From Candidatus Bathyarchaeota archaeon (GTDB taxonomy: Archaea > Thermoproteota > Bathyarchaeia > Bathyarchaeales > Bathycorpusculaceae), in NCBI GenBank assembly GCA_963772455.1, contig CAVYXJ010000005.1:32001-96000 (forward strand): a DNA stretch of 64,000 nt. The letters run 5' to 3'. A program made the position numbers and the translations under genes. Position 1 is the first letter of the stretch. Each line of letters starts with the position of its first letter. Below, in pieces: positions 3,005 to 18,742 of the stretch. The notes beneath the pieces were generated by a model. That model was not told the DNA's origin. It saw nothing but the letters and a program-made list of their open reading frames with translations, and did no database searches.

Positions 3005-3204
3005 TTATTCAGTTCACGCCCAATGATGTGGGATTATATAACTATCTAAACTAACCACAAACTTGCTTACTTCATATTTTGATGCAATTAAGAATTACAT
3101 CTCAGGTATTTGGTTAATGTCGATCTTTTTCTATCAGGACCAACATAAAAAAAGTAAGAAATGATTTTAAGATACTAATAATTCAGAAACTCTGCATACA
3201 TTAG

Positions 3205-4488
3205 GTGTCAATGTTGGTTGTTGAAAAAGCTGTACATTTTTATTCTTGTCAATTAGCGACATCTAAATCTGTACAACAACACAAACTCCGAAAGCGTATA
3301 GCTTGGTTGTCAAATAAAGAGGGACAGGGCAGAGAGTTCATCTCACTTTTCATACCTCCAAACACTCGAATAGATGAGGTAATTGCCAACCTGAAGAAAG
3401 AAGCTGATTTAACTATCAGGGAACCTGAGAAGGTTAAAGAACGATTACAAAGTTCCTTTAAAGCTGTAATCCTTAATCTAAAACAGGTTAAGGAAATTCC
3501 GGAAAACGGGTTAGCTCTATTTGCAGGATTTTTTCCAGTTAACGAATCTGAAAAAGAAGTATTAAGCTTAGAAGAGATAGTTCCACTTGAACCGTTTAAC
3601 GCCTATTCTTACTCAATTGGCACCCATTTTGATTTAATGCCACTTAGAGAAATGCTAAGAGACCAAAAAAATATTGGAATACTCGCTTTAGATTCTAAGC
3701 AAGCTAGTTTTGGATTATTAAATGGTGAACACATTGAAATTTTAGAGAATATTTCTTCTGGAATTTCCGGAAAATCTGGAAAAGGCGGGTCGAGCCAAAG
3801 AAGATATGAACGAGAACGCGACTCCTCAATCGAAAACTTCTTTCACAGAATTGCGGAACACGCAAACAACCAATATATCAAGAAAAAAGTTAACATTTTG
3901 ATAGTCGGGGGACCTGGTCAAACTAAAAATGATTTCTTGAAAGGTGAATATCTTCATTATGAACTGAATAATATGCTTCTAAACATAGTTGACACCCAAT
4001 CCGCAGGCAAAGAAGCGCTAAAAGAGATTCTAAACAAATCATCTGAACTTCTTAAGAATATGTGTGGACCTGAAGAAAAAAGAATCGTTCAGAATCTAAT
4101 GACAGAGTTGAGTAAACAAAGTGGTTTAGCCATTTATGGTTTAGATACAGTGTTAGACGCGCTTAGAAATGGTGAAGTGCAAATTGCTATAGTGACAGAT
4201 AGCACCGATATGATTGAAAATGTTGCAGTTTGCAAAAGATGTGGGTTTTCAAAAAGGAAGATAGCAAATAAGAAAATTCATGCCATCCGAGAAATGATTG
4301 AGAGTCCATGTGAAAAGTGCAATGGGGTTTCATATGAATATAGAGAGAAAGACATTGTTGATGTTTTAGAAGATATAGCTTCTCAAACTGATGCAAGCGT
4401 TGAGGTAATTTCATCCATTTCTGATGAAAAAGCATCACTCACAGCGTTGGGTGGCTTTGCAGCTCTTTTAAGATACAAATCAGGATAA
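3205..4488 (+). CDS. Peptide chain release factor aRF1-family paralog with degenerate motifs
   Basis: ISLFIPP, PENGLALF, KGGSSQRRYER, IVGGPG.TK, YGLD.V, C4 zinc minidomain and LGGFAALLRY give the full three-domain aRF1/eRF1 architecture. Confidence 0.9.
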   Translation: MSMLVVEKAVHFYSCQLATSKSVQQHKLRKRIAWLSNKEGQGREFISLFIPPNTRIDEVIANLKKEADLTIREPEKVKERLQSSFKAVILNLKQVKEIPENGLALFAGFFPVNESEKEVLSLEEIVPLEPFNAYSYSIGTHFDLMPLREMLRDQKNIGILALDSKQASFGLLNGEHIEILENISSGISGKSGKGGSSQRRYERERDSSIENFFHRIAEHANNQYIKKKVNILIVGGPGQTKNDFLKGEYLHYELNNMLLNIVDTQSAGKEALKEILNKSSELLKNMCGPEEKRIVQNLMTELSKQSGLAIYGLDTVLDALRNGEVQIAIVTDSTDMIENVAVCKRCGFSKRKIANKKIHAIREMIESPCEKCNGVSYEYREKDIVDVLEDIASQTDASVEVISSISDEKASLTALGGFAALLRYKSG

Positions 4489-4792
4489 ACATTGTTTTTC
4501 AACAATTAATTTCAACAGATATAATTTTCAAAAGTTTTGAATCATAAAAATGTCTTTGTAAAAACTAAAGACATAAGTTGCCATACCGTTTTCAAAGCCG
4601 AATGATATTCTAAAAACAATTGTTTCTAGAACTATTTTGAATACTTGCATGATTTCAAGCTTGTTTCAACCTATAATTTTAAATGGAATGAAATCATTCT
4701 TTTTGATAAAAAATTTACTTTCAAATCCGTCAAAAAATTTGCAACTCTTGACACGGAGATCCAGAACGCTGAATGAAAGAGGAAAAGACCGC

Positions 4793-5491
4793 ATGAATAA
4801 TGAAGTAAAATTATTATCAATAGGGGTAATGATCGTTATTCTTCTATTAGGAGTTGCAACTTATTTTTCTTTTGAGGTTGTATCAGCTAAACAGATTCGC
4901 GTAGCTTGCGTGGGCGATAGTATTACTGAGGGAAGCGGTTATCCCTTCCAATTAAATTTGATGCTTGGTTCAAACTACGTCGTTGGCAATTTTGGGGTAA
5001 GCGGATCCACTGTTTCACTTGATTCTACGAAACCTTACATGAATGAAAGCAAATTCAAAGCAGCTTTGGATTTTAACCCTGACATTGTTGTTATTATGTT
5101 GGGAACTAATGATGCAAACACAGAAGTCACTCCAAATGAAAATGGCGTTGATTCTGATTATTCAAAGCTGGTTTCGGCGTTCCAACAACTTGAAGGTAAG
5201 CAACTAATTTGGATTGCAAAGTCACCGCCGATCTTCACAAACAATTCAAGTTACAGCAATACAATTCTCACCACGAATGTACTTCCACAAATTGACAATT
5301 TAGCTGATGAAATGAATTTACCTACAGTTGACATGTACAATATTCTCAGCGACCACTCGGATTATTTTGCTGATGGCATACATCCAACTCGTGATGGCGC
5401 CGCTTTGATTGCCACTAATGTTTACAATGCAATAACTTTGCCCGATGGATCTCCAGATACGTCTTACTTTGATTTTGGTTACTCAGATTGA
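4793..5491 (+). CDS. Membrane-anchored SGNH/GDSL hydrolase-fold protein (esterase or acetyltransferase)
   Basis: GDSIT, G.SG, GTND and DGIHP blocks; N-terminal TM; start moved to ATG 4793 after a GAGG RBS. Confidence 0.85.
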   Translation: MNNEVKLLSIGVMIVILLLGVATYFSFEVVSAKQIRVACVGDSITEGSGYPFQLNLMLGSNYVVGNFGVSGSTVSLDSTKPYMNESKFKAALDFNPDIVVIMLGTNDANTEVTPNENGVDSDYSKLVSAFQQLEGKQLIWIAKSPPIFTNNSSYSNTILTTNVLPQIDNLADEMNLPTVDMYNILSDHSDYFADGIHPTRDGAALIATNVYNAITLPDGSPDTSYFDFGYSD

Positions 5492-5584
5492 TATTGGTTG
5501 GAAATTACTCTCTATTGCGGATATTACGCAAACTGTTTATAGTAAATCGTGAGTAAAGAAAGATACAGGTTATTGGGATCTTAA

Positions 5585-6649
5585 GTGAACCTGAATAATG
5601 AAAAATTAGTTCTCCCTGTTGATCTCATCCGTTCTGTGGCCATAATTTTAGTTATCTTGCTTCATGCCTCAACTCAGTCTTACTCGGAGGTTGATTTGAT
5701 GTCGCCACAAGGAGTACAAATCTGGTGGGCATCAAATATCTATGATTCTCTAGCTCGAGTATGCATCCCTTTGTTTGTAATGTTGGCAGGTGCACTTTTG
5801 CTTCAACCCAGCAAAGCAGATGAACCACTAAAAATCTTCTTCAAAAAAAGGCTATATCGAATCGGACTGCCTTTCATCTTTTGGGGGGCAATATATTTTG
5901 CTTGGCGATTCTTCGTAAATGGCGAAGCATTAACAACTAACTCTCTTATTCAAGGACTGTTAAATGGACCTTACTATCAATTTTGGTTTCTCTACCTAAT
6001 AATAGGATTATATCTCGTCACACCTATCCTGCGAGTACTAATAAAACATGCAGAACAAAAAATAATCAAATACTTAATTTCCATTTGGTTTTTAGGCACA
6101 GCTATAATTCCAATATTAACATTGTTCGGATCTTTCAATTTGAATGCCAATGTCTTCCTTTTGACAGGATGGTTAGGCTATTTTGTTTTAGGCGCATACC
6201 TAATGAAGGTACATTTGAGATCTTCAATTCTAATCACAGTTTTTGCAGCGGCTTTTCTCTGGACAATAATTGGGACATACCTAATCATTGGCAATTTAGG
6301 TGAAATATTTAATCAGTTTTTTTTATCAGGTTACAGCTTCAACATCATACTGGGTTCAACTGCATTATTCTTACTCATGGCTTCTATCCCAGCCTCTAAA
6401 ATAGAAAAAAGATTTCCAAATGGCAATCGAGTACTTAGAGTAATAAGTCAAAACACTTTGCCGATATTTCTATTCCATCCAATTGTACTGGAAACCTTGC
6501 AGAAAGGTTACTTAGGATTTGCCATAAACATAACATCAATTAACCCAATTGTAGAAATCCCACTTATCACCGCTCTCACTCTGCTCATCTGCCTCGCAAT
6601 AATTGTTCCTTTAAAGAAAATACCTTATGTAAAAAGAATCATTGGTTGA
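5585..6649 (+). CDS. Acyltransferase family 3 (WecH-like O-acetyltransferase)
   Basis: DLIRSVAI..VI.LH, R.CIPLFVMLAG and FWFLY motifs; about 10 TM segments. Confidence 0.85.
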   Translation: MNLNNEKLVLPVDLIRSVAIILVILLHASTQSYSEVDLMSPQGVQIWWASNIYDSLARVCIPLFVMLAGALLLQPSKADEPLKIFFKKRLYRIGLPFIFWGAIYFAWRFFVNGEALTTNSLIQGLLNGPYYQFWFLYLIIGLYLVTPILRVLIKHAEQKIIKYLISIWFLGTAIIPILTLFGSFNLNANVFLLTGWLGYFVLGAYLMKVHLRSSILITVFAAAFLWTIIGTYLIIGNLGEIFNQFFLSGYSFNIILGSTALFLLMASIPASKIEKRFPNGNRVLRVISQNTLPIFLFHPIVLETLQKGYLGFAINITSINPIVEIPLITALTLLICLAIIVPLKKIPYVKRIIG

Positions 6650-6753
6650 AATAAAAAATTTTCAAGTCAATTTCTACAATAAATTTCTCTTACTTTTCTA
6701 GCAAAACTATTTCTTGAACAAAGTGGGGCTAATCTAAGGAAAAAAGCTGTACC

Positions 6754-8169
6754 TTGAAAATAATTAAAGAACAAATCAAGTTGCAAACAAACGCATTTCG
6801 CGAAAAATTTGAAAGAAATAACTTGAAAAAAATCTTTGCTGATAATTATCCTCTCTTAAGCATACTAATTGGCTACTTATTTGTAGCATTAACAATAGGA
6901 CCGTTCTACAATAGTGATACTGCAACTGAATACAACGCTGTATCGGGAGTATTGAAATATGGCTTGCCAAAACTGGATAACGGCAATTTCATTAATCAAC
7001 CCCCATTAGGATTCTATTCTCAAGCCTTTTTCTTCAACATGTTCGGTTCTTCAATAAGCAATGGCACGTCCTTGGTCACCTTGTTTGGGCTTGGATGCAT
7101 CGTCTTAGTATATGGAATTGCCAATACCGTGTACAATAAGACTACAGCTTTTTTCGCAGCTACCCTTTTTGCTTTTAGCCCATGGCATCTGATATTGTCA
7201 AGGACTTTCCTAATTGATGTTCAATGTCTCTTCTTTAGTCTGTTTTCGCTATTTCTTGGAATATTTGCCGTCCGCCGAGATTCAATTAAGTTATTTTTGG
7301 GTGGAGGGATCATTTTTGCAATGGCTTTTAGCACAAAATTATATGCTGTGTTTATTCTTATCCCAATTTTGGCTTTCTTTTTCTTCTATAGATCTGAAAA
7401 AATAAGACAAAAATTAATTTGGTTGGGTGCATTTTCCGCGCCAACATTGTTGTTTTCTTTTTTGTGGTATCAAACAATTGCGAAAGTCGGAATGGGAGCT
7501 ATTATTTTTCACACCGATTTTGCAATCCATGAATCTAGCGGTATAGTTCCTTCTTACTTTTTTGTAAGCAATTTCCTCACTAACTATGGTTTAGGCTGGT
7601 TATTTGTGGATGCAGCAATTCTATCACTATTACTATGTTTCACCCAAAAACGTTTATTTCGCAGATTTCTTGCTTTTGATATAATCAGCTTGTTAACCAT
7701 AATTTGCATATTAAGTGTGAACACTTTTTTGGGAGCAACCTTGAAACTTAATTCCCCTTATCTGACCGCGATAAAATATGATTATCAATCATTGCCTTTC
7801 TTTGCTTTCTTAGCGGGATCATTGATAACAAAAAGCATTTCACTCATTAATTTAAGCAAGCTAAAGAAAAAATTAACTAAAATAACCTATGTTTTTGCCG
7901 CTTCATTAGGATTAATCCTTGTGCCACTTTCAATAGGAATCAACATGAGTTATGTGAATCTATTTTCCACTTGGACCTATTTACTTTTCAAAGCGGACTC
8001 AAACATTAAAGTGGGGTATTCATTTTTTAGCGATACTCCAGTTGGTTTAAACAGCGTTCTGTTTAATTTTCAATATTTAGGGTATGCATTAATGCTATCA
8101 GGAATTGTTTGGCTAAGCAGGCATAAAATATTTTCATTACTGAAAACAGTAAATGTTAAAATCCATTAA
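6754..8169 (+). CDS. GT-C fold glycosyltransferase (ArnT/PMT, GT39/GT83-like)
   Basis: QPPLGF motif, FSPWH..SR...D, TKLY; multi-TM. Confidence 0.8.
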   Translation: MKIIKEQIKLQTNAFREKFERNNLKKIFADNYPLLSILIGYLFVALTIGPFYNSDTATEYNAVSGVLKYGLPKLDNGNFINQPPLGFYSQAFFFNMFGSSISNGTSLVTLFGLGCIVLVYGIANTVYNKTTAFFAATLFAFSPWHLILSRTFLIDVQCLFFSLFSLFLGIFAVRRDSIKLFLGGGIIFAMAFSTKLYAVFILIPILAFFFFYRSEKIRQKLIWLGAFSAPTLLFSFLWYQTIAKVGMGAIIFHTDFAIHESSGIVPSYFFVSNFLTNYGLGWLFVDAAILSLLLCFTQKRLFRRFLAFDIISLLTIICILSVNTFLGATLKLNSPYLTAIKYDYQSLPFFAFLAGSLITKSISLINLSKLKKKLTKITYVFAASLGLILVPLSIGINMSYVNLFSTWTYLLFKADSNIKVGYSFFSDTPVGLNSVLFNFQYLGYALMLSGIVWLSRHKIFSLLKTVNVKIH

Positions 8170-8214
8170 ATTAAATATTGAACAAAAACAAGTTACATAA
8201 TGAAGAGAATATAT

Positions 8215-8258
8215 TTAAGAGAAGAAGAGTGAAAAATTTGCACTTCTTCTTCTCTTAA
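8215..8258. repeat. Palindromic intergenic element, copy 1
   Basis: TTAAGAGAAGAAG (8215-8227) pairs perfectly with CTTCTTCTCTTAA (8246-8258); homologous inverted copy at about 15073-15127. Confidence 0.7.
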
Positions 8259-8490
8259 CATTCTTCTACCTTTAACAGTTGCTCTTTGGATGAAGCAGAG
8301 ACTATGATCCTTTCATAGCTGAAAAAATCCGAAGGGCTTGATTCAACATGTTAGTGTAGGCGCAGATTACGATGCATTGGATTTTGTGGATGCAAAGATC
8401 GCCCAGTCTTATCCTCAAGTTAAGCCTATAGCCATTCCTTGTAAAAACAAGTCTTATTTATTTGAGGGACATACAAGAAAGTGATGAATT

Positions 8491-8862
8491 ATGCAAAACG
8501 ATACAGAAACAAAAATTAAGCAAGACCTTTTGGCTGAAATTCAAAACTTAGAACAAAATTACATAGTAATTCAGGGTTTTATCGCTGGAAAAGAATATGA
8601 GGTTACAGTAATCGGATCAAGCCTTCAATCATTCAAAGACAGCTTAAGTAGAGCAAGCGCATTTGTCCTTGCATTATACAACTTTAAAGGCAAAAGAGTC
8701 AACATTCCATGGGAACCGCTCTTCACTAACTTGGATTATGCACTCGCGACTTTATCAACTACTCCAAAGAAAGAAGCTGTCCAAGTAATCTTATCCATGG
8801 CTAAAGAACAGATTGAACAGGTATTATCATATTTCTCAGCTCTAAAAGAATCACTCAAATGA
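8491..8862 (+). CDS. Hypothetical helical protein
   Basis: 123-aa ORF with ATG, plausible RBS and normal composition. Confidence 0.65.
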   Translation: MQNDTETKIKQDLLAEIQNLEQNYIVIQGFIAGKEYEVTVIGSSLQSFKDSLSRASAFVLALYNFKGKRVNIPWEPLFTNLDYALATLSTTPKKEAVQVILSMAKEQIEQVLSYFSALKESLK

Positions 8863-9090
8863 CATTGATTCTCAGCAACGCTTAATCAGAATTAATGCCT
8901 TTTCTTTTTGATTATTATGGTTTCTTTTTCTGTAGCTCAAGTAGACTTAGTTTCGCAAATTTTCATTTTTGTTTTTCTTACTGTTGGATTATTTGTGGAG
9001 CGGGTTTCCTGCTGGATTCGAAGGCAGAGACTAACTGTATTCAAGGATGAAGAGTTAAGTATAACCCAAATCAAACATTTGTGAAGAAAG

Positions 9091-9456
9091 ATGGCATATT
9101 TACGTAACGAGAAAGAAAACCTCGAAGTATCATATCCATTGGAAAAGATTTGGGCTGTAATACCAGAAACCGTCAAGATTTTGGAATGGACAATAGAGGA
9201 GCAAGACGACACAGCCCACAAGGCTAAGATCAAATCGAAAGGTGGTTTCTTAGCCTACAATTCAATTCTTTTCCTTGAAGCGTCTTCGGTTGATGAAAAT
9301 ACAACTAAAATGTCTATCTATGCAGAAACACCAGTAACCACAATAACATCAATTATTGATTTCGGCAGGACCAGAGACCGCGTAGGTCAATTTATTGAAA
9401 CATTAGGTAGGCTTATGGAAAAGAAAGATAAACAAAAGAAATCTCAAGCGGATTAA
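9091..9456 (+). CDS. Hypothetical protein
   Basis: 121-aa ORF, globular alpha/beta pattern; preferred over the antisense ORF. Confidence 0.7.
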   Translation: MAYLRNEKENLEVSYPLEKIWAVIPETVKILEWTIEEQDDTAHKAKIKSKGGFLAYNSILFLEASSVDENTTKMSIYAETPVTTITSIIDFGRTRDRVGQFIETLGRLMEKKDKQKKSQAD

Positions 9457-9494
9457 GCAAAAATCTAATAACATTAGCAAATGTTTGATTATTT

Positions 9495-10461
9495 ATGATA
9501 CGTGTTCTCAACTTGGGCGACAATTCTGAAAGAACAGTGAGTCATGAAGAATTAACAGGATTAAACCTCTCGAGCCTTTGGCTAGAACTTGTTGACCCTA
9601 CTGAAAACGAGTTGAGATCGGTATCAAATGCAACACAGTTTCCCATTACTTTTTTGAGATTACCAACAACTGAAGGATACGTCAATTTACGATTAGAACC
9701 AGATTACGGTGTCATTAATTTTCTTAGTCATGCAAGACATTGTATCAACCAAAAAAACACACCCAGTTGTCCTAGTTTTTTCGAAGACTTTGCTCGTAAC
9801 CGTCGCGACAAAAGAAACTCAGAAAGTCATTGATATTGCTAAAGAACGAATGAGCAAAGCTAAAATAGACCCCCCATCCCACGTTATCTATTTTATCATT
9901 GATGAAATAGTTTCCTCTCATTATATTCAAATTGAAAAACTCGAAAACCTCACCGCAAAAATGGAAGAGGAAGTCGTTGAGAAAACCTCTGCTGACACAT
10001 TAAAGAAAATATTTAGACTTAAATCAAACATGGTTAGCTTTAACAAGCTACTTTGGTATGAACGAGGACTAATTTTTAATATTAAAAAATTCGAAGAAGT
10101 CCACTTGTCTCCAAAAGCCCGAGCCTTATTTGACACAACACATGAGGATTTGACTCGGCAAATAGACATAGTTGAAACTTATAGAGAAATACTTTCAGAC
10201 GCCATAAATGTCCATTTATCAGCAATTTCAAACAAAATTAATCTCTCAATAAAAGCTTTAACAATCGTCATATTCTACTTAACAATTGTAACTACAATTA
10301 CTTCTTTCCCAAACACCGTTGCCACCTTCTTTGGAATTGCCCAGTTTGGAAACACAAATATCCTAATTATCACAACTGCATTATTGCTATCAATTGTTTT
10401 ACCTCTCGTTTGGCTTTGGAAAAAGAGTTGGCTTACCTCGAAGAGACTTGATTACCAATAA
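9495..10461 (+). CDS. corA: CorA-family divalent cation transporter (+1 frameshift in the T-run at 9719-9722; about 321 aa joined)
   Basis: WLEL.DPT..E N-terminus, long stalk helices, two C-terminal TMs; removing one T joins GVINF to LVMQDIV. Confidence 0.8.
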
Positions 10462-10569
10462 CTCTGAAAAATAATAATTCACCTCGCACCATCCAAAACA
10501 TATTCTAACTATAAAACAGGAAAGCTACTGCGATAACTTGGATAAACTAAACAATAATTTGGGAATAAC

Positions 10570-10995
10570 ATGAGCCAAAAACAACCACCCATAATCACTT
10601 ACAAAGGCAGAAGAATAGGCATCGTCATTTTAGTTGTTTCACAATTAATTATCGGAGCTATCCACGCTTTCTTCGGGTTACTTCTTCTTGTATATGAAAA
10701 CTTTTCGTTCCTTCCAACAACAGCATTTTACGACATCAACACTTTTATTTTTGGGTTGTTAGCTTTAGTATTCGCAGTCTTTATTTGGCAAGACAAAAAG
10801 ATTGGGTGGATAGGCACAATTGCAGTTTCGTTATTTGTGATTGCTGCAGATTCTTTGACTCTTCTAGATTTACCAAGTATCCCAGGGATTCCAAAGTTTG
10901 CAGGATTTACTGAAATAGCTTATAGTGTTTTGGTTGTGGGTTATTTGCTTCAAACCAGAATAAGAAGAAAATATTTCAATCATAAGAAAAATTAA
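10570..10995 (+). CDS. Hypothetical 4-TM membrane protein
   Basis: 141 aa, four hydrophobic segments. Confidence 0.7.
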   Translation: MSQKQPPIITYKGRRIGIVILVVSQLIIGAIHAFFGLLLLVYENFSFLPTTAFYDINTFIFGLLALVFAVFIWQDKKIGWIGTIAVSLFVIAADSLTLLDLPSIPGIPKFAGFTEIAYSVLVVGYLLQTRIRRKYFNHKKN

Positions 10996-11024
10996 ACTTC
11001 TAAAGATATTAGAAAAACCCTAAT

Positions 11025-11690
11025 TTATCTAAGGGTTGCATTGTTGGGGTAGCCTCTGCTTTCCCAGTAACCCAGATAATCAGGGTTATCTGTTAATTCA
11101 ATGTTGGTAATCCATTTCGCCCATTTGTAGCCATATTGGCTTTCAGCGACGAGTTCGAACGGGAAGCCACGTTCAGGTGGAAGTGTCAAACCATTCATCT
11201 TGTAAGCAATAATGATGTTTTTGTCTGTGATGTAATCGATCGGGAGCTCAGTTGAATAGCCATCGTATGCGTAAAAGATTGCTGCCACCGCACTCGAGTT
11301 GACGCCTGCTTCTTTCAGCAAATCGTTTACGAGAAATCCTTCCCAAAGAATCTTAACCGACCAACCTTCAACACAATAAAGGGTTACGACTTTTTCATAT
11401 TTCTGGAACTTGCTAAGTATCTCGTCGTAAGTGTAATTCACTGTTTTGTTAACCAATCCAGTTATTGACAAGCGATAAGTGGAGATGTCGACTTGTTGTG
11501 GTCCCTTAATCGAGTTTTCCCTAAAGTCTCCGATTGAAGAAAGGTTTTCGCCTTGGTAATCGCGGATTTCTCCGGGATACAACCTTTTAGGCTGATTCAC
11601 TCCATAGTAGACGGCTAAGAAAACAAGCACTAACAACATTATTGTTAAAGAAACCGCAATTAATTTTTGATAGCGATTTTTTTTCTCCAT
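11025..11690 (-). CDS. Molybdopterin-dependent oxidoreductase, sulfite oxidase/MsrP-like, membrane anchored
   Basis: CVEGWS, DGYST, LPPERGFP, GYKWAKWI and GYWE.RGY motifs. Confidence 0.9.
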   Translation of the reverse strand: MEKKNRYQKLIAVSLTIMLLVLVFLAVYYGVNQPKRLYPGEIRDYQGENLSSIGDFRENSIKGPQQVDISTYRLSITGLVNKTVNYTYDEILSKFQKYEKVVTLYCVEGWSVKILWEGFLVNDLLKEAGVNSSAVAAIFYAYDGYSTELPIDYITDKNIIIAYKMNGLTLPPERGFPFELVAESQYGYKWAKWITNIELTDNPDYLGYWESRGYPNNATLR

Positions 11691-11782
11691 TCTTATTCAG
11701 CTCAAAAAAGTAAGAACCCTTTAACCCACTGAATGGATGTCCATCATACTTAAAAAACCCAATCCTTATTCAAAAAATTTAC

Positions 11783-12229
11783 TTACCAAAAAATCGAAAG
11801 TTGATTCGCAGGATAACAAAATATTAAGCTTTTTTTTAGCGTACTCAAATACTTAGGCAATCCTTCGATGCATTGAATTTCTCTGCCTGCAATTGCGCGT
11901 AGAGCATGCCAAAACTTCAGGTTCACCAAGATTTTTTCCCATTCCAGGCTCTCTTGAAGATGTTTAGTACCTTCTTGTCCTCGTCGATCAAAATCAAGTA
12001 ACAGAATAACTTCTCTTGAACATAGCCTTTGGATTTCTACCGTTGCTTCAAGAAAAGATTTACCTCCAGTCTTCACCATTAAAATCGGGCCTTTAGCGCC
12101 CAATTCTTGAAGAGCATCAGCATCTTTCTTGCCTTCAACAATTAGTGGAGTACCTTCCGATGATTTTTCTATCAACTGTGTTATGATTTGCTCTATTTTC
12201 TCTAATTTTTCTTTACGGTGTGTAGACAA
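11783..12229 (-). CDS. Archaeal small TOPRIM-domain protein
   Basis: IVEGKKD and DFDRRG TOPRIM motifs; the C-terminus may be extended by an extra base in the homopolymer at about 11830. Confidence 0.85.
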   Translation of the reverse strand: MSTHRKEKLEKIEQIITQLIEKSSEGTPLIVEGKKDADALQELGAKGPILMVKTGGKSFLEATVEIQRLCSREVILLLDFDRRGQEGTKHLQESLEWEKILVNLKFWHALRAIAGREIQCIEGLPKYLSTLKKSLIFCYPANQLSIFW

Positions 12230-12234
12230 AACAG

Positions 12235-13323
12235 TTACCGGGTAATCTTTGCATTGCGTACAGTCTCTAAACAGTCTTTGGCTTCTTTATTATTTTCAAA
12301 GTAGCGTCTAACTGGTTCAAGGATGCTTGCAAGTTCAGTTGCAACACCATTTTTAAGATCCATCGGATGCAATTTGCCATCTGAATAGGCTGCCTCAAGT
12401 TCTTGGAAGCACTGGAACTCTGCATTTCCGCCGAATTTAGCTGGACGCTCTATTCTAAAGACTGGTTTTTCCCTGAAAATAATGTATTTGCAAATGTCCA
12501 TTATAGGATTGTACTTTACGGTTCTTTCTGGACAGAACGCTTTACTCATCTTTTGCTTGATTTCCTCTGGTGAATCATAAATGAAGATGCAGGTGTCTGG
12601 TTTACTCTTAGACATTTTTGCTGAAGCAACTGCTTCTCTTTCTTGTCCTTCGGGAATTGGCCAAATTCCAGGTTTAGCTAAGCCCTGCAACAAATGGTGA
12701 TGTACGGAAACCGGTTTCCAGCAACCGATTTTTTCTCCGATTTCTCTTCCAACCATGTTTGCTTTGCGTTGATCCATGCCTAGTTGACAAATTTTGACTT
12801 TCATATGGAAGATATCGGCCACCTGCATAGGTGTGTAGAGATAGTCGGAAACGTAGTGGGCTTCACCCTCTTTTCTACCGGCGATTTCAAGAGTTCGAGT
12901 TGTTCGAGCTAAAGTCAGGTTCTTGGCTATTATCACTGTTTTTGCCCAATAGTCAATGTCTTTGTAGAGTTCATCCGAATAAATGAATTCGACTTTATCG
13001 CCTGGCACCCCAAGGGCGAGCCAGGAATGTCTAAAGAGGTCTGCGGCTTTGCGGATAAGGGTTAAGTCGCCACCAAGTTTGTTGTTTAACCATGCATGCC
13101 AAGTTGCCAAGAACGCTTTGAAGTGGATTCCAGCTTCCGCAAAGTCTTTCATTTTATAGGCGCAAATAACGCCTGTTCCTAAATGTGCTAGACCAGAAGG
13201 TTCCCAACCGTTATAGGCGATTGGGTGTTCTTCAGTTTCTAGAAGCGCTCTCAAATCCTCTGCAGTGACTAATTCTTCAGTTGGTGGTCTGCAAATTAAT
13301 TCAATTTTCTTTTCTATGTCCAA
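12235..13323 (-). CDS. tyrS: Tyrosine--tRNA ligase (archaeal type)
   Basis: YNGWEPSG.AHLG (HIGH-like), YTPMQVAD, GMDQRK, KMSKS, LHPMDLK. Confidence 0.97.
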   Translation of the reverse strand: MDIEKKIELICRPPTEELVTAEDLRALLETEEHPIAYNGWEPSGLAHLGTGVICAYKMKDFAEAGIHFKAFLATWHAWLNNKLGGDLTLIRKAADLFRHSWLALGVPGDKVEFIYSDELYKDIDYWAKTVIIAKNLTLARTTRTLEIAGRKEGEAHYVSDYLYTPMQVADIFHMKVKICQLGMDQRKANMVGREIGEKIGCWKPVSVHHHLLQGLAKPGIWPIPEGQEREAVASAKMSKSKPDTCIFIYDSPEEIKQKMSKAFCPERTVKYNPIMDICKYIIFREKPVFRIERPAKFGGNAEFQCFQELEAAYSDGKLHPMDLKNGVATELASILEPVRRYFENNKEAKDCLETVRNAKITR

Positions 13324-13509
13324 ATTGGCACCAAACCCTTAGTGGTTATAGGTTTAATGCTAGTGATGAACTTAAAAATTCGCTTTCTACTCTAAATTCG
13401 CTAGCTGAATTCTGCCTCTTTAAGAGGAAATAATAAAAAACATTTTTTTTCAAAAAAAAATAGTTTGCTAAGGTATCTGGGTAAATATAATTACAAATAG
13501 GTTCACAAT

Positions 13510-14502
13510 ATAATTGTTAATTAGGTTACAAAAACCCAAGATAATTATTGATTAAAAAAGGAAAAGATGTAGTTTGCGCGTATAGCATTCAAAATCTGGT
13601 CGGTGATAGTACTATTGGAGTCATTTTTGACTATACCGATTATGATGAGTGAAGTCTCCAATATCTCTTCTGACGCGCAAGTCCTTTGCGGGTGCGGGTA
13701 TTGTTGGATATCCCAGACGAATTGTGTAAGAAATCTTTAACGGGTCAGGGATATCAAGAATCTGCTTCAGTTCCTCCTCTACAGATACCGTTGCTGATAG
13801 ACTTAGAATCTGCATGCCAATTCCCAAAGCTTGTGCAGTCAGCCAGATATTTTCCATAAGGCAGCCTAAACCGATAAAGCCGTAAATATCCACAGCAAGA
13901 GCGGGTGCTTTCTTTCTTGGGTCATATAAAACCATTAGAAGAGTTGGGCTCCCTCTAATGGAATTACTAATCGGTATTGGGGGAGAACGCGCGATTTGGC
14001 TGAATTTGGCTGGGTCAACCCAGTCCGGCGGAAAACCAGTTGACAAAATCCCTGCCTTCTTATGCTTGAGCTCCTCCTCTGAGAATGACAAGTGCCCATA
14101 GTTATCGCGTAAGAAATCCTCTAAAACGCATGATTTTATACTGCTTATTCTTCCAAGCACCGCTCTGTCGTCGACAACCATGATTTCGTAGTTCTGCATG
14201 TTGTGTCCTGTAGGCGCCCAACGTGCAGCCTCCAATAAATGTTCGAGATTCTCCTTAGAGATTGGTCTATTTGGGTCAAATGGAACACGAACGGATTTAC
14301 GTTCCTTAATAGTCTTAAAAACGTCTTTCAAACGAAAACCCTTTAACACATAATTTATTCTGGAAAATGAACTTTTCGTCCAAAATATCCTTTATATTTC
14401 GAAATTGCCTGCTTTTCTTGTAGCCATAACACTTTGGCATAATTATCAAAGGATTTACCAACATAATTCTCAATTAGGTTAGAAAAAGCTGAGATAATTA
14501 TT
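13510..14502. repeat. Imperfect 40-bp direct repeat flanking the nitroreductase gene (13510-13549 and 14463-14502)
   Basis: 34/40 identity by hand: ATAATTgttAATTAGGTTAcAAAAAcccaAGATAATTATT vs ATAATTctcAATTAGGTTAgAAAAAgctgAGATAATTATT. Confidence 0.7.
13621..14331 (-). CDS. Nitroreductase family protein
   Basis: RKSVR, AARWAPTGHNMQ, ENIWLTA..LGIG, LGYP; probable TTG start at 14331. Confidence 0.9.
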   Translation of the reverse strand: MKDVFKTIKERKSVRVPFDPNRPISKENLEHLLEAARWAPTGHNMQNYEIMVVDDRAVLGRISSIKSCVLEDFLRDNYGHLSFSEEELKHKKAGILSTGFPPDWVDPAKFSQIARSPPIPISNSIRGSPTLLMVLYDPRKKAPALAVDIYGFIGLGCLMENIWLTAQALGIGMQILSLSATVSVEEELKQILDIPDPLKISYTIRLGYPTIPAPAKDLRVRRDIGDFTHHNRYSQK

Positions 14503-14763
14503 AACCCAAAACAACCCTTTTCCTTTTATTGTTTTTAAAGTAAAGTTAGGTATAGCATATGTGGAGTGTGAGAGGAATGAAAGCGATAGTGGTAACTCCT
14601 TCATCTTGAAAAAATAAACGTTTTCTCTTTAAATTATCATTTATTTTTGAAATCATCCTTATCTCTTAGTTCATTATTGTATATGAAGTATCCAGATTTG
14701 GTTCATTGAGCAGAAAGCTTTTCTCTTTTTGAATGGCATATTTGGAAAGTATGTGAATCAAAT

Positions 14764-14985
14764 TTGGATATTATGAAAGCAATAAAATTAAGGAAAGACC
14801 TTCAAATCACCAATTTTCCACGAATGCAACTTCTTGGCACTTGTAAAGAAGGTTATTTGCTATGCATAAGCGCAATTTTAGTTAATGCTTTGCTTCTTAG
14901 GCAGATAGAACTTGTTGCTAAAGAAAACAAGTTATCCATAGTTTTTGAACAGGGTTACTGGATGCTTATTGGTCAAAGCAACTAG
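14764..14985 (+). CDS. Hypothetical small protein
   Basis: 73-aa ORF only; no motif. Confidence 0.4.
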   Translation: MDIMKAIKLRKDLQITNFPRMQLLGTCKEGYLLCISAILVNALLLRQIELVAKENKLSIVFEQGYWMLIGQSN

Positions 14986-15072
14986 CGTTCAGGTCGCTGT
15001 GAAACTAAAACACGTCCACTTCCCAATAGCTCTTTGACCTGCCAAAGGCGAGTTATGCACCTAAAACTCAGA

Positions 15073-15127
15073 GTTAAAAGTAGAAGAAGCGCAAATTTTT
15101 TTCTCTTCTTCTTCTAATGAATATATT
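15073..15127. repeat. Palindromic intergenic element, copy 2 (inverted relative to copy 1)
   Basis: Aligns with the reverse complement of 8208-8259; TAGAAGAAG (15081-15089) pairs with CTTCTTCTA (15108-15116). Confidence 0.65.
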
Positions 15128-15451
15128 TTTCGAGTTCGTGTTGATAAAGACTAAATAAAACAATTTGCAACCACTTTTCAGAAACTACAAAAATAAGGTC
15201 GCTGAGGGCTTGAAACCTAAACTAAATTCCATCCAAAAATATCCGTTTATTTTCTACTAATTTATAGAAGAGCAGTATTCCTTAATTAAATTAGGATTGT
15301 GTTTTTAGGGACCATAAGAAGGGTATAACTTGGGAACTCAGGAACAAACCTTACCATCAAAAACTTATTTTTTGCCTTATGATGCTATTATTTGAAAAAA
15401 GAAAAGATTGGTTTTTAAATTAAGATTTAACCAAATCAACTTTGCAGGAGT

Positions 15452-16042
15452 TTATTTTTCTTGCAGCACCTGAAGTTTAGCCTTGTATTCTTCTTCAGAT
15501 ATTTCTCCCTTAATAAACCTCAATTTCAACTGAACTAACGGATCTTCAACAGATTGAGACTGAACAGAAGTATTCTGCCTAAAAATCATCTCCTTAGGTT
15601 TATTAAACTCCCAATCCGCCATACCAAGAAGCTCACCCTTACGCTTCATTGAAACCGGCTCAACCGCGATACCATTATAAGCAATTTCCAAAGCATCAAT
15701 AAAATTCGCCATATCCCCGCGATTTACTCTCTCCACCGTAAAAATAGCACCATCCTCCATTTTAACCGTAACTTCTCCCCACACAACTGCCCCTCTATGC
15801 GCACTAATTTGAAGCACCTTCTGCAAAGGCAAGGATTTGAAGTCGTATCTACCCAAATGTTTCTCATCAAAATAGATAAGGCGAATGTTCGTAAGCACTA
15901 TGTAATTTGTTCGTTCAGCTATAACAAAGCTGTTGAGGGAACTGATAACTTCTTCGCCAGGGGAAAGATTCTTCTTTAAACCGCCGGGTAACTTATCAAC
16001 TAAATTTTTACTAGAAGGTTTCTCACTCACTTTATACACCAT
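15452..16042 (-). CDS. Prokaryotic PH-domain protein with C-terminal SHOCT domain
   Basis: L.PGEEVI, VLTN.RLIY (bPH-like) and LKLRFIKGEISEEEY (SHOCT). Confidence 0.8.
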   Translation of the reverse strand: MVYKVSEKPSSKNLVDKLPGGLKKNLSPGEEVISSLNSFVIAERTNYIVLTNIRLIYFDEKHLGRYDFKSLPLQKVLQISAHRGAVVWGEVTVKMEDGAIFTVERVNRGDMANFIDALEIAYNGIAVEPVSMKRKGELLGMADWEFNKPKEMIFRQNTSVQSQSVEDPLVQLKLRFIKGEISEEEYKAKLQVLQEK

Positions 16043-16247
16043 CTTACAAGATTAATGGTATTTTATTCCTGTATTAAAAAGTATGCAGATCACAAAAATA
16101 ATGGATTCCTTCAAAGGCGCTTACTCGTTTTAAATGTCTGCCTGTAACTCTCTGTTGACACACGCTTGTAACTATAGTTCTACAGTCACAAATCGTTAAG
16201 TAGACTCGAAAAAACAATAAATCAGGTATACAAGAGGTGATTAGCCA

Positions 16248-16366
16248 ATGAAGTTTTTCCGTAATATCAAAGCTGGTTTAGCTGGATGGCTCTGGTATGC
16301 TATTATATAGTAGTATTAGTAATAGTTCTCATCGTTGCTTTAAGATTCCTTTTTAACCTGATATAA
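16248..16366 (+). CDS. Very small membrane peptide with a class III (prepilin-like) signal; 20 aa as read, 39 aa if one base is missing near 16305
   Basis: GAGGTGA RBS; MKFFRNIKAG-LAGWLWYAII, then VVLVIVLIVALRFLFNLI in the shifted frame. Confidence 0.5.
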
Positions 16367-16667
16367 ATTAAGCTAAAAAAGAGTCAGTTAAAATAAACCC
16401 ACACCAGCCATATTTTCTCACCACAATTAATTTAAAAGAAAACAAGCATTCGCTTTTGATTTTAACTTCCACAATCAACTTAGTCTTTCTTAGGGTGAGA
16501 AACCACTACGTTAAATCCTTATTTCTTTATTTGCCGACAAGGTGGCGCAACGGCGGTGAAAAATTCCACAGCCACTCTCAAACTTTGAAATGCAAGAGGT
16601 AAGCCGCAGAAAAATTCTTCTTGATGTAACCAATTATGTCTTAACCTAAGCGAGAGTCACGATAATT

Positions 16668-17441
16668 ATGTCTGAAAAAAAGACGCCAACAGTCTTGGCT
16701 ATCTCAGGTTCTCTAAGAAGCCCCTCTTTTACTGATAAAATGTTAGATAGCTTGCTTAAAGGAATGGGTGAAGTGGAAGTTCACAAGTTTTATCCTCATA
16801 AGATGAAGATTGGACCTTGCACAAGCTGTTGGAGCTGCTGGCAAGGAAAAAACAAAGGTGAATGTGTCCAGAAAGACGATTTTCAATCAATATACGATAT
16901 TTACAAAAAGTGTGATTACTTTATCATCGCTGCACCAGTTTACGTTTTTGGTTTTCCAGCAACTGTCAAAAACGTGATAGATAGGTTCTTTATAAACTTG
17001 GAACCTTCCCAGATTTTAATGGAGAACGGGATAACTAATCACCCTCAACGGCATGCATCTAAGGCAAAAGGTGTCTTGGTTTCATCTTGTGGTTTTCCAG
17101 ATATGGAGAATTTTACTCTAATGAGTGAACATTTTAAGAAGTTTATGATGCACTTTGGATTAACTTGGGCAGGCGAAGCTCTAATACCATCAGCTGGGGC
17201 AGCAAACGTTCCTCATTTGCTTGATGGCAACATTGAGGCAGTTAGACAAGCTGGTGCCGAATTGGTTAATGGCATAATATCTTCTGAAACAATGCGCATT
17301 ATTAGTGACGTTCCAATATCTAAAAACGATTATAGGGAAATGACTAATGCCAGCTTCAAAGGAGGACTATCTGGAAAAGCAAAGACTTTTGCCATTGGAA
17401 TCAAAGCAATAAGAAATAAAGGTAAGAAAAAACAGTTTTGA
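16668..17441 (+). CDS. Iron-sulfur flavoprotein / NADPH-dependent FMN reductase family
   Basis: GSLR, CTSCWSC-x7-C, APVY, K..IDR. Confidence 0.85.
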   Translation: MSEKKTPTVLAISGSLRSPSFTDKMLDSLLKGMGEVEVHKFYPHKMKIGPCTSCWSCWQGKNKGECVQKDDFQSIYDIYKKCDYFIIAAPVYVFGFPATVKNVIDRFFINLEPSQILMENGITNHPQRHASKAKGVLVSSCGFPDMENFTLMSEHFKKFMMHFGLTWAGEALIPSAGAANVPHLLDGNIEAVRQAGAELVNGIISSETMRIISDVPISKNDYREMTNASFKGGLSGKAKTFAIGIKAIRNKGKKKQF

Positions 17442-17521
17442 TGATTCTTCCAATGGCATATGTAATCTTCAAAGAGTGTTAAACTCAAATTCTCCACGAA
17501 AAACGTCATTTCATGAGTTAA

Positions 17522-17800
17522 CTATTTTTTCAAATCAATTAGCATTTTTAACACCAATTTAAGTGCAGAGTCATAGCCATCGCAATATTCTTTGCTGGAG
17601 TCTTTGTCCGCATAGATTTGCTGCACAATTTCTTTTCCAATGCCTTCATTAGTTAGCTGGATTGAGCCTTCTTTTAGCCATATCAAAGCATCAATATACC
17701 CGTGTTCTGAGTCTGAAAGCTCATCTGTTGTAGATGATTCTGCTTTCTGCCTGATTATTTCCTCAATCTTTTCTTTTAACTCGTTCTCAACCTTGCTCAC
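17522..17800 (-). CDS. Hypothetical protein with an internal GY.DAL/GYDSAL repeat
   Basis: 92 aa; GGTGA RBS upstream of GTG. Confidence 0.65.
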   Translation of the reverse strand: MSKVENELKEKIEEIIRQKAESSTTDELSDSEHGYIDALIWLKEGSIQLTNEGIGKEIVQQIYADKDSSKEYCDGYDSALKLVLKMLIDLKK

Positions 17801-17837
17801 TTCTTCTCACCAATTCGATTACTTGTTTGTTATAGAG

Positions 17838-18742
17838 TTAAGTAGCTATCGGATTACCCAAGCGATTTCGACTCCATTTAAATTGATTTGTATTAAACCA
17901 TAGAGCCACCCCAAGAATTGGCAGCGTCAGCATCCAAAAATCCGTTAAAGGCAAGAAATCACGGTAAACAGGAACCCAAACAGAAACCACATCATAAATG
18001 ACAAAATAAACTCCAACTAGACATATGGCAGCCCCAACAAAGCGAAAGTTGGGTTTTCCATGGCGCCAAAAATCTAAGCAAACAACAGATGTAACTATGG
18101 CAGCAACAAGTAAGGTCAACCAAGAATTCAAAAACCCAAGGAACTCAAAAAAGCCAGTTTGAGGTGGCGCCAAAGATGAGAGCGCATAAACCCAAAACAA
18201 ACCATGCCTAACCCAAAAACCAAACAAGTACAAAGGAGCGACAATAACTACCCACTTAATAATCGAAGAGGTATATTGAGTGTGTTTTAGTTTGTGACTC
18301 AGCATAAACAAAGCAGGGAAAATAAGCAGGGATTGAAGCAGAACGGAAACACCCGAGTAAGAAATTCAAGAAGGCACTCGTTGAAATAATGGACCCGATC
18401 AGATGATTTACCGCCGCAGGTAACAGTAGCAGGAAGTAGAGCGATTCAAAAAGCAAAACAAGCCTAAACTTTTGGAGATATTTAGGGTTATTTTTCAGAT
18501 AAAGTATAGCAGAGTAAACGGCTAAGATAGCAGCTATTAGGCGAAGGTAGCTTCCAACAGAACCAGCGAGTTCTTGGAACAAAAAAAGAACAAGTTGTAG
18601 CTCGGGTTGGCTACTAGTTATGAAATGTGGCAAGACAACAATGTACGGTTGGGAAATTTACAACAAATAGGGTTGTTGTAATTGCCTGATAAAAAGTGTA
18701 GAGCAAAAAAGAGATAGCGACAACGATTAGCGCTGTTTTCAT
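17838..18742 (-). pseudogene. Multi-TM membrane protein broken by several frameshifts
   Basis: Hydrophobic frames MKTALIVVAISF / YTFYQAITTTLF / PHFITSSQP / YSGVSVLLQSLLIFPALFML join across indels near 18710, 18640 and 18360. Confidence 0.6.

Follow-up and report, generated by a model that had tools for sequence, protein, structure and literature searches.

A selected aRF1 variant without the stop-codon-reading motifs, confined to one archaeal family

What becomes of an archaeal release factor that lacks the motifs with which stop codons are read? A gene on the forward strand of the window, i.e. the whole 64,000-nucleotide stretch of Bathyarchaeia DNA analysed here, raises this question. Its product is built like the termination factor aRF1, and the original prediction had described it as a full three-domain aRF1 carrying GRE, TIRE, YSIGTHF and GGSSQ at the motif positions, all of which we recovered.

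The gene, its product and the decoding motifs

The reading frame at 3205..4488 (+) is uninterrupted and encodes a three-domain aRF1 homologue, with a maximal length of 427 aa from a GTG and a likely length of 424-425 aa. The protein passes the aRF1 model TIGR03676 (329 bits, cut-off 234.7) and matches Pfam eRF1_2 (114 bits) and eRF1_3 (60 bits), while eRF1_1, at 21.8 bits, stays under its cut-off of 23.8. An AlphaFold2 model computed from a 45-row alignment (mean pLDDT 79) has aRF1 (4af1) and eRF1 as its top Foldseek matches, Balon chains ranking 21 and lower.

Across the genus, 85 matches to this gene were obtained at E 8e-114 or better, canonical aRF1 following at 2e-75 or worse. Of the 84 examined, 77 were full length and seven disrupted (six carry a frameshift or stop codon, one has an internal deletion); the disrupted ones were left out of residue and motif counts, so that n = 77 for the protein family throughout, against a canonical set of 48 aRF1s (41 from the genus, seven from the order). 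eRF1_3 was found in all 45 family members scanned and eRF1_1 in 37. The fold of the N domain (residues 24-153; 3274..3663, +) is retained, as are the M and C domains, the GPG patch, the four-cysteine zinc ribbon of the C domain (4231..4320, +; all four cysteines in 77/77 family members and 48/48 canonical proteins) and, as ALLRY (4462..4476, +), the equivalent of the C-terminal GILRY motif, with Leu422 and Arg423 in 77/77.

The GTG at 3205 sits within a Shine-Dalgarno-like AGGTG (3203..3207, +), and the aligned start in relatives lies 11 codons before Cys15 (TTG in 59/77, ATG in 6, GTG in 4), which makes ATG 3211 or TTG 3214, both preceded by this site, the likely start. A loose pattern of the same kind is present in 73/77 loci. 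Further upstream, at 3162..3186 (+), lies a BRE/TATA-like element with a consensus of about AATTCTRRGAAACTRATAAATT, whose core pattern recurs in 41/77 loci, 28-60 nt ahead of the start and, in 36 of these 41, at 46-49 nt. A matrix derived from 34 such sites in other genomes gives the window site 19.9 bits, joint second among 24 matches in the genome, compared with seven and 15 matches in shuffled sequence; no regulon is evident among the 24. The element, a putative promoter, and the Shine-Dalgarno-like site appear to travel with the gene.

The decoding motifs of the N domain are lost. GRE (G42-R43-E44; 3328-3336, +) occupies the GT(S/E) position, where threonine is found in 6/77 family members and 48/48 canonical proteins, and TIRE (T70-I-R-E73; 3412-3423, +) occupies the NIKS position, where NIK[S/D/N] occurs in 0/77 and 48/48, respectively; the NIKS segment itself varies from 50 to 59 residues in the family but is fixed at 57 in canonical aRF1. 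Alignment of the 77 members places YSIGTHF (Y136-S-I-G-T-H-F142; 3610-3630, +) at the YxCxxxF position, where cysteine is absent throughout (valine in 63) and tyrosine and phenylalanine are kept in 59 and 76 members. Since the roles of NIKS, the GTE threonine and the YxCxxxF cysteine in stop decoding are established (PMC2613156, accessible sections), and the family has lost the first and third entirely and the second mostly, its proteins are very unlikely to read stop codons.

Nei-Gojobori dN/dS was computed on 26 disjoint family pairs (from 408/2926 pairs with dS of 0.05-1) and nine canonical pairs (from 66/820). For the whole gene it is 0.198 in the family, ranging from 0.115 to 0.318 across all 26 pairs, against 0.048 in canonical aRF1, a fourfold difference; for the N domain it is 0.237 against 0.037. 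The contrast between the NIKS region (0.359 vs 0.016) and the catalytic loop (0.070 vs 0.068) indicates that decoding has been freed from constraint, which on the loop is as strict as in the terminator. Purifying selection rules out a pseudogene, and the unconstrained decay of the loop that would have spoken against the original prediction is not what we see.

Beyond the decoding motifs, eight residues are newly invariant in the family (77/77), namely Cys15, His26, Lys165, Lys193, Gln198, Gln265, Cys287 and Lys304. Cys15 precedes the N domain closely. Cys287 belongs to a C-x-P peculiar to the family, in the helix that joins the M domain to the C domain (4063..4071, +; Cys287 in 77/77, Pro289 in 76/77), where canonical proteins have Arg and Ile/Val. 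A new metal-binding or redox site could be made up of Cys15 (3247-3249), His26 (3280-3282) and Cys287 (4063-4065); residues 1-20, among them Cys15, are modelled by AlphaFold2 at low confidence.

Genomic setting, distribution and origin

The gene is not the only aRF1 of its genome. A canonical aRF1 with TASNIKS, YRCDSRF and GGQSA lies on contig C7, to which the window protein is 33% identical, bearing out the expectation that the terminator would be found elsewhere in the same genome. Near the canonical gene, a 545 aa frame (L002:5505-7142) has the look of what we take to be a type IB topoisomerase. A second copy of the window gene, on contig C15, is 91% identical and has the same loop codons; together with the loop codons themselves (below), this rules out an indel or sequencing error as the source of GGSSQ, as had been predicted. 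The C15 copy lies within about 13 kb that match the window's contig, C5, at 92-95% and include a tyrosyl-tRNA synthetase gene, which makes a recent duplication within the genome doubtful and is consistent with the bin containing a sibling strain. In coordinates, G000:C15:4033-17916 and window 3022-17852 share two 92-95% identical blocks with housekeeping genes, likely from such a strain.

The host also encodes pelota, an Rqc2-type NFACT protein, Pth2, a HemK2-type methylase and a HibA-like CBS-HPF protein (G000:C13:28821-29999), the name of the last being our reading of its sequence and of a weak HPF match in relatives. Some genomes of the genus have a second HibA-like gene, 47-50% identical. 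The host pelota gene (G000:C12, about 63650) has a one-base frameshift in an A run near codon 46, probably an assembly error. In the 81 near-complete genomes of the genus, pelota was found in 78, Rqc2/NFACT in 80 and the HibA-like protein, counted with a protein query because the Pfam HPF model PF02482 is too weak (4/81), in 79. These genes are found in genomes with and without the aRF1 copy, and no sign was seen that the copy substitutes for any of the three.

The copy itself is patchy. It occurs in 76/120 genomes of the genus and in 52 of the 81 that are at least 90% complete; it was not found in the other 44 of the 120, among them the single-contig, 97% complete G003 and G081, and a genome with three partial matches (G083) was scored as lacking it. 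Nor was it found in 24 genomes from other families of the order, and a phylum-wide sample of 401 genomes yielded it in only five genomes of the genus and one of a sister genus. Three genomes (G027, G079 and G125, all GGQSQ) have the copy as their only aRF1. That it has replaced the canonical gene there can be rejected: the canonical gene's flanking gene is missing as well, so these assemblies are incomplete at that place, and the same flanking gene is missing in two genomes without any aRF1. Reassignment of a stop codon can be set aside too, all three stops closing long frames (TAA 627, TGA 260, TAG 237).

The gene stands alone, the commonest neighbourhood being shared by 18/77 loci, and no partner gene, for rescue or repair or otherwise, recurs among the neighbours of the 77 loci. 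Of 151 adjacent reading frames, the 70 that were scanned include transporters, metabolic genes, three OsmC proteins, two AlaX-like proteins and one CBS protein; HPF and RtcB were absent from these 70. In the window, a GDSL/SGNH esterase, an acyltransferase-3 and a PMT-type glycosyltransferase follow in a row (4637-8169, +), suggesting surface glycan acylation, and such an esterase lies downstream of the aRF1 copy in 9/77 loci. On the other strand (406-2469, -), two NMT1/THI5-like substrate-binding proteins, encoded in tandem and almost the same at their C-terminal ends, lie upstream of a probable sensor protein, and like blocks are present on several contigs.

Where did the copy come from? A family profile scores Nitrososphaeria aRF1 at 462 bits and Bathyarchaeia aRF1 at 393 at most, and in a 62-row tree as well as a 40-row mixture-model tree, both quick searches without bootstrap and without VLRF1 sequences, the family nests in a Nitrososphaeria-type clade with an SH-aLRT of 100. 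That clade contains members of clusters named Nitrososphaerota as well as proteins from four genomes that carry amoA; the family is sister to P0169, P0002 and P0004 (support 97 and 95), and its nearest donors carry GGQSA. AU tests, for which 30 of the 62 rows were used, reject a duplication of the host aRF1 (p = 4e-8 for the host family's aRF1, 1e-49 for that of the order). The family was probably acquired horizontally from Nitrososphaeria, the exact donor being soft given the quick trees and the long family stem; old paralogy followed by repeated loss would be the less probable alternative. Third-position GC follows that of the host aRF1 (rho 0.84, 35 genomes), which indicates that the gene has been resident for long.

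At least 30 of the best 150 database matches are aRF1s in which an intein follows immediately on GGx. Several aRF1s of Nitrososphaerota type have a second one just before the YxCxxxF cysteine, and a Pfam intein domain was detected in 13/15 proteins tested.

Patchiness, varied gene order and the seven disrupted copies among 84 might be taken to mean that a redundant transferred gene is slowly decaying. Alternatively, the protein might serve off the ribosome as a decoy for the partners of aRF1 or for intein homing, inteins of the donor lineage sitting exactly after GGQ and before the YxC cysteine, both of which are altered here. We hold this pair of accounts to be distinctly improbable. Every one of the 26 pairs is under purifying selection, new invariant residues have arisen, and the tracking of third-position GC likewise speaks against both; frameshifts in the same assemblies also hit pelota, Rqc2 and HibA-like genes, and an escape from inteins would leave the loss of NIKS unexplained. 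Judged by distribution, trees and selection, the family is real, i.e. a selected, probably transferred aRF1 variant confined to one archaeal family.

The catalytic loop

The catalytic-loop region GISGKSGKGGSSQRRYERERD (3760..3822, +) contains GGSSQ (G194-G-S-S-Q198; 3784-3798, +; codons GGC GGG TCG AGC CAA) and comprises 21 residues in 77/77 family members and 48/48 canonical proteins. Because the alignment to canonical GGQSA is gapless, GGSSQ is best read as GG[Q>S]SQ and not as a longer, VLRF1-type loop; the solved A. pernix aRF1 (3agk) has GGQSQRRYER at this place. GGxSQ is found in all 77 members, divided into GGSSQ (48) and GGQSQ (29). In a 45-row alignment, G194, G195, S197, Q198, R199 and R200 do not vary. 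On a FastTree phylogeny from which the loop columns were left out, glutamine and serine at position 196 swap at least four times, and position 191 co-varies with 196 (Ser-Ser in 48, Thr-Gln in 27, Ser-Gln in two). One database relative carries GGESQ, and proline at 196 occurs in no family member. Gln198 is present in 77/77 family members, 0/48 canonical proteins and 4/48 other rows.

Would such a loop still release peptides without the glutamine of GGQ? In bacterial release factors, the main-chain amide at the position of this glutamine is described as catalytic, Gln-to-Pro abolishing release and Gln-to-Glu leaving activity (PMC4691834, accessible sections). Among the best 120 relatives of P0018, several of them named Aenigmarchaeota, GGW occurs in 114 (GGWSQ in 82; GGWSA, which has no loop glutamine at all, in 30), and 93 combine GGW with NIK and YxCxxxF; single aRF1s with GGF, GGS and GGE were seen among P0050, P0114 and P0026. 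That GGW goes together with intact decoding motifs may be taken as support, though not proof, for release without glutamine, and the copy number per genome matters here: if GGW proteins are sole copies, the GGQ glutamine would not be universal in true terminators, which bears on the textbook claim of GGQ universality.

The original prediction had linked GGxSQ to baeRF1/VLRF1-type factors. The motif is indeed that of aVLRF1 and acVLRF1 (PMC6514570, accessible sections), and for these and Vms1/ANKZF1 a codon-independent role has been proposed or shown. In that form the link is not supported, as the family nests within Nitrososphaeria aRF1, keeps the C domain and the canonical loop length, and has GGQ in 29 members. 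By the accessible accounts, aVLRF1 is without a C domain and bears a long coiled coil at its N terminus, acVLRF1 is without an N domain, and VLRF1 loops are longer than classical ones, whereas the family has both domains and a loop of canonical length; the NCBIfam model for acVLRF1 failed on the window protein. By these comparisons, the GGxSQ of the family is probably independent of VLRF1, recent and derived from a classical aRF1.

A functional parallel could still have arisen by convergence, i.e. an enzyme in which Gln198 is catalytic and which acts on 50S-bound peptidyl-tRNA, possibly cutting the tRNA end much as Vms1 cleaves CCA on the 60S subunit (PMC7026593, in part). The gain of Gln198 by all members from donors with GGQSA would suit such an enzyme, as would the near-constant presence of Rqc2. 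However, GGQSQ is also found in true aRF1s of A. pernix and other families, the loop has not lengthened as in VLRF1 (PMC6514570, accessible sections), and the N domain is still selected (dN/dS 0.24), so that we regard this reading as highly improbable.

What a stop-blind factor may do on the ribosome

Set against classical aRF1 (TIGR03676; structures 4af1, 3agk/3vmf), the family shares the N-M-C order, the zinc ribbon, the loop length with its Gly-Gly, the SxRRYER helix, the GPG patch, the LRY end and membership of the Nitrososphaeria-type clade. It differs in the decoding motifs, in the change of the GGQ glutamine to serine in 48/77 members, in its new invariant residues, in being accessory and patchy beside a canonical copy and in one further residue. 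This is Ser266 of DTQS (3991..4002, +), which by counting on the alignment replaces the tyrosine equivalent to A. pernix Tyr257, reported as necessary for aEF1-alpha binding (PMC3467058, accessible sections). Position 266 is Ser in 66, Phe in nine, Tyr in one and Thr in one of the 77 members, but Tyr in 48/48 canonical proteins and in 48/48 non-family rows of the tree alignment.

Among the rescue, quality-control and hibernation roles put forward in the original prediction, the data lean towards peptide release. In our view, the family protein is best explained as a factor that would release peptides from stalled or split ribosomes whatever the codon, a tentative reading to which we would give a little less than an even chance. 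The factor would enter a vacant A site by way of the conserved arginine helix that follows the loop, on a substrate that would be a stalled 70S ribosome or a 50S subunit with peptidyl-tRNA. Delivery by aEF1-alpha would be poor or nil, keeping a codon-blind factor off elongating ribosomes. The Gly-Gly-(Ser/Gln) backbone would then position the water and free the chain, more slowly with serine, and ABCE1 would recycle the factor through the retained C domain.

Several observations argue for release. The loop is kept at canonical length and constraint, unlike the loops of inactive superfamily members, which in baeRF1 families and Dom34 are poorly conserved and free in length (PMC6514570, accessible sections). 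GGQ is retained in 29 members and exchanged with its serine form repeatedly; the main-chain amide is the catalytic group in bacterial factors, and no member has proline at 196, one database relative having Glu. Natural GGW aRF1s with intact decoding motifs (93 of the best 120 P0018 relatives) point the same way, as does the loss of Tyr266 in 76/77 members. With HibA-like proteins in 79/81 genomes, moreover, there is no hibernation gap to fill.

Other observations pull against it. Glutamine is missing from 48/77 members, and the mutagenesis cited above concerns bacterial factors and reaches us second-hand. A rescue route is already provided by pelota, Rqc2 and the host Pth2, the gene is dispensable, given its absence from 44/120 genomes and the disrupted copies, and no recurring rescue or repair gene accompanies it. 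Constraint on the loop would also fit tight but non-catalytic binding in the peptidyl-transferase centre, and overall dN/dS is four times the canonical value.

Binding without release is what a Balon-like hibernation or stress factor would do, filling the A site whatever the mRNA and shielding the decoding and catalytic centres. Balon is described as an aeRF1 homologue that has neither NIKS nor GGQ and binds to both vacant and translating ribosomes (PMC10901736, accessible sections), and potential archaeal Balons have been defined by the same absences in genomes that also hold an aRF1 (PMC13324472, in part). The aeRF1 fold without NIKS, in a gene extra to the real release factor, is thus common to the family and Balon (Rv2629, Msmeg1130); the 48 members without Gln196 and the stand-alone gene with its own conserved upstream element would fit as well. 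Yet the loop of Balon differs from that of aRF1 (PMC10901736, accessible sections) and its identity to aeRF1 is about 10%, whereas the window protein is 33% identical to the host aRF1, and the family has a loop of aRF1 type and length under canonical constraint and keeps GGQ in 29 members. The Rv2629-family model NF052289 gives 40.6 bits against a cut-off of 320, Balon structures rank no better than 21 in the Foldseek search, and HPF is absent from the 70 neighbours scanned. There is no exclusion with the HibA-like factor either, though Balon coexists with RaiA too. The potential archaeal Balons reported are from Halobacteriota and Thermoplasmatota (PMC13324472, in part); a search of four supplement files of that study gave no match, while its figure 7 and source data could list the family as a potential Balon. 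Taken together, we rate a hibernation role, the main rival to release, as unlikely but credible.

The protein might instead act as a pelota-like splitting adaptor that enters stalled ribosomes and recruits ABCE1 to split them, leaving peptidyl-tRNA intact. Pelota/Dom34 belongs to the same superfamily, is a codon-independent A-site factor and likewise lacks the Tyr257 equivalent (PMC3467058, accessible sections), and the parts that the family retains, with both its M and its C domain, the GPG patch and the LRY motif at the C terminus, would serve such a task. This seems improbable nonetheless. Pelota is present in 78/81 genomes regardless of the copy, it lacks the loop tip (PMC2613156, accessible sections) that is the family's most conserved part, and its second acidic EF1-alpha contact position is the invariant Lys165 in the family. 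Pelota also differs in its N domain, which has an Sm fold, and in having no loop that is conserved; the window protein scores 67 bits with TIGR00111 (cut-off 177.65), and its profile alignment to the host pelota begins only at residue 209.

For codon-independent release, bacterial ArfB and ArfA-RF2 offer a comparison: they too bring about release without a stop codon, but their fold is unrelated and there is no homology. The family would most likely resemble ArfB or Vms1 in purpose, not in descent. A more far-reaching version, rather improbable by our estimate, is that a captured terminator has been rebuilt into an EF1-alpha-independent factor that frees chains from split 50S subunits, as Vms1/ANKZF1 does in eukaryotes, with catalysis shifted from the GGQ glutamine to Gln198. 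If true, the GGQSA donors and the GGQSQ and GGSSQ members would represent surviving stages on the way to a GGxSQ loop that arose independently.

No description of the family was found in the full-text literature searched, which largely leaves out subscription journals. The known codon-blind members of the superfamily, such as pelota, Balon and Vms1, are too diverged for their path from terminator to a role in rescue or hibernation to be traced. The present family is young enough to be aligned residue by residue to its donor, and both GGQ and GGS forms of it occur naturally. It allows the contribution of the GGQ glutamine in archaeal-eukaryotic release factors to be tested directly, along with the way in which archaea free chains from stalled ribosomes.
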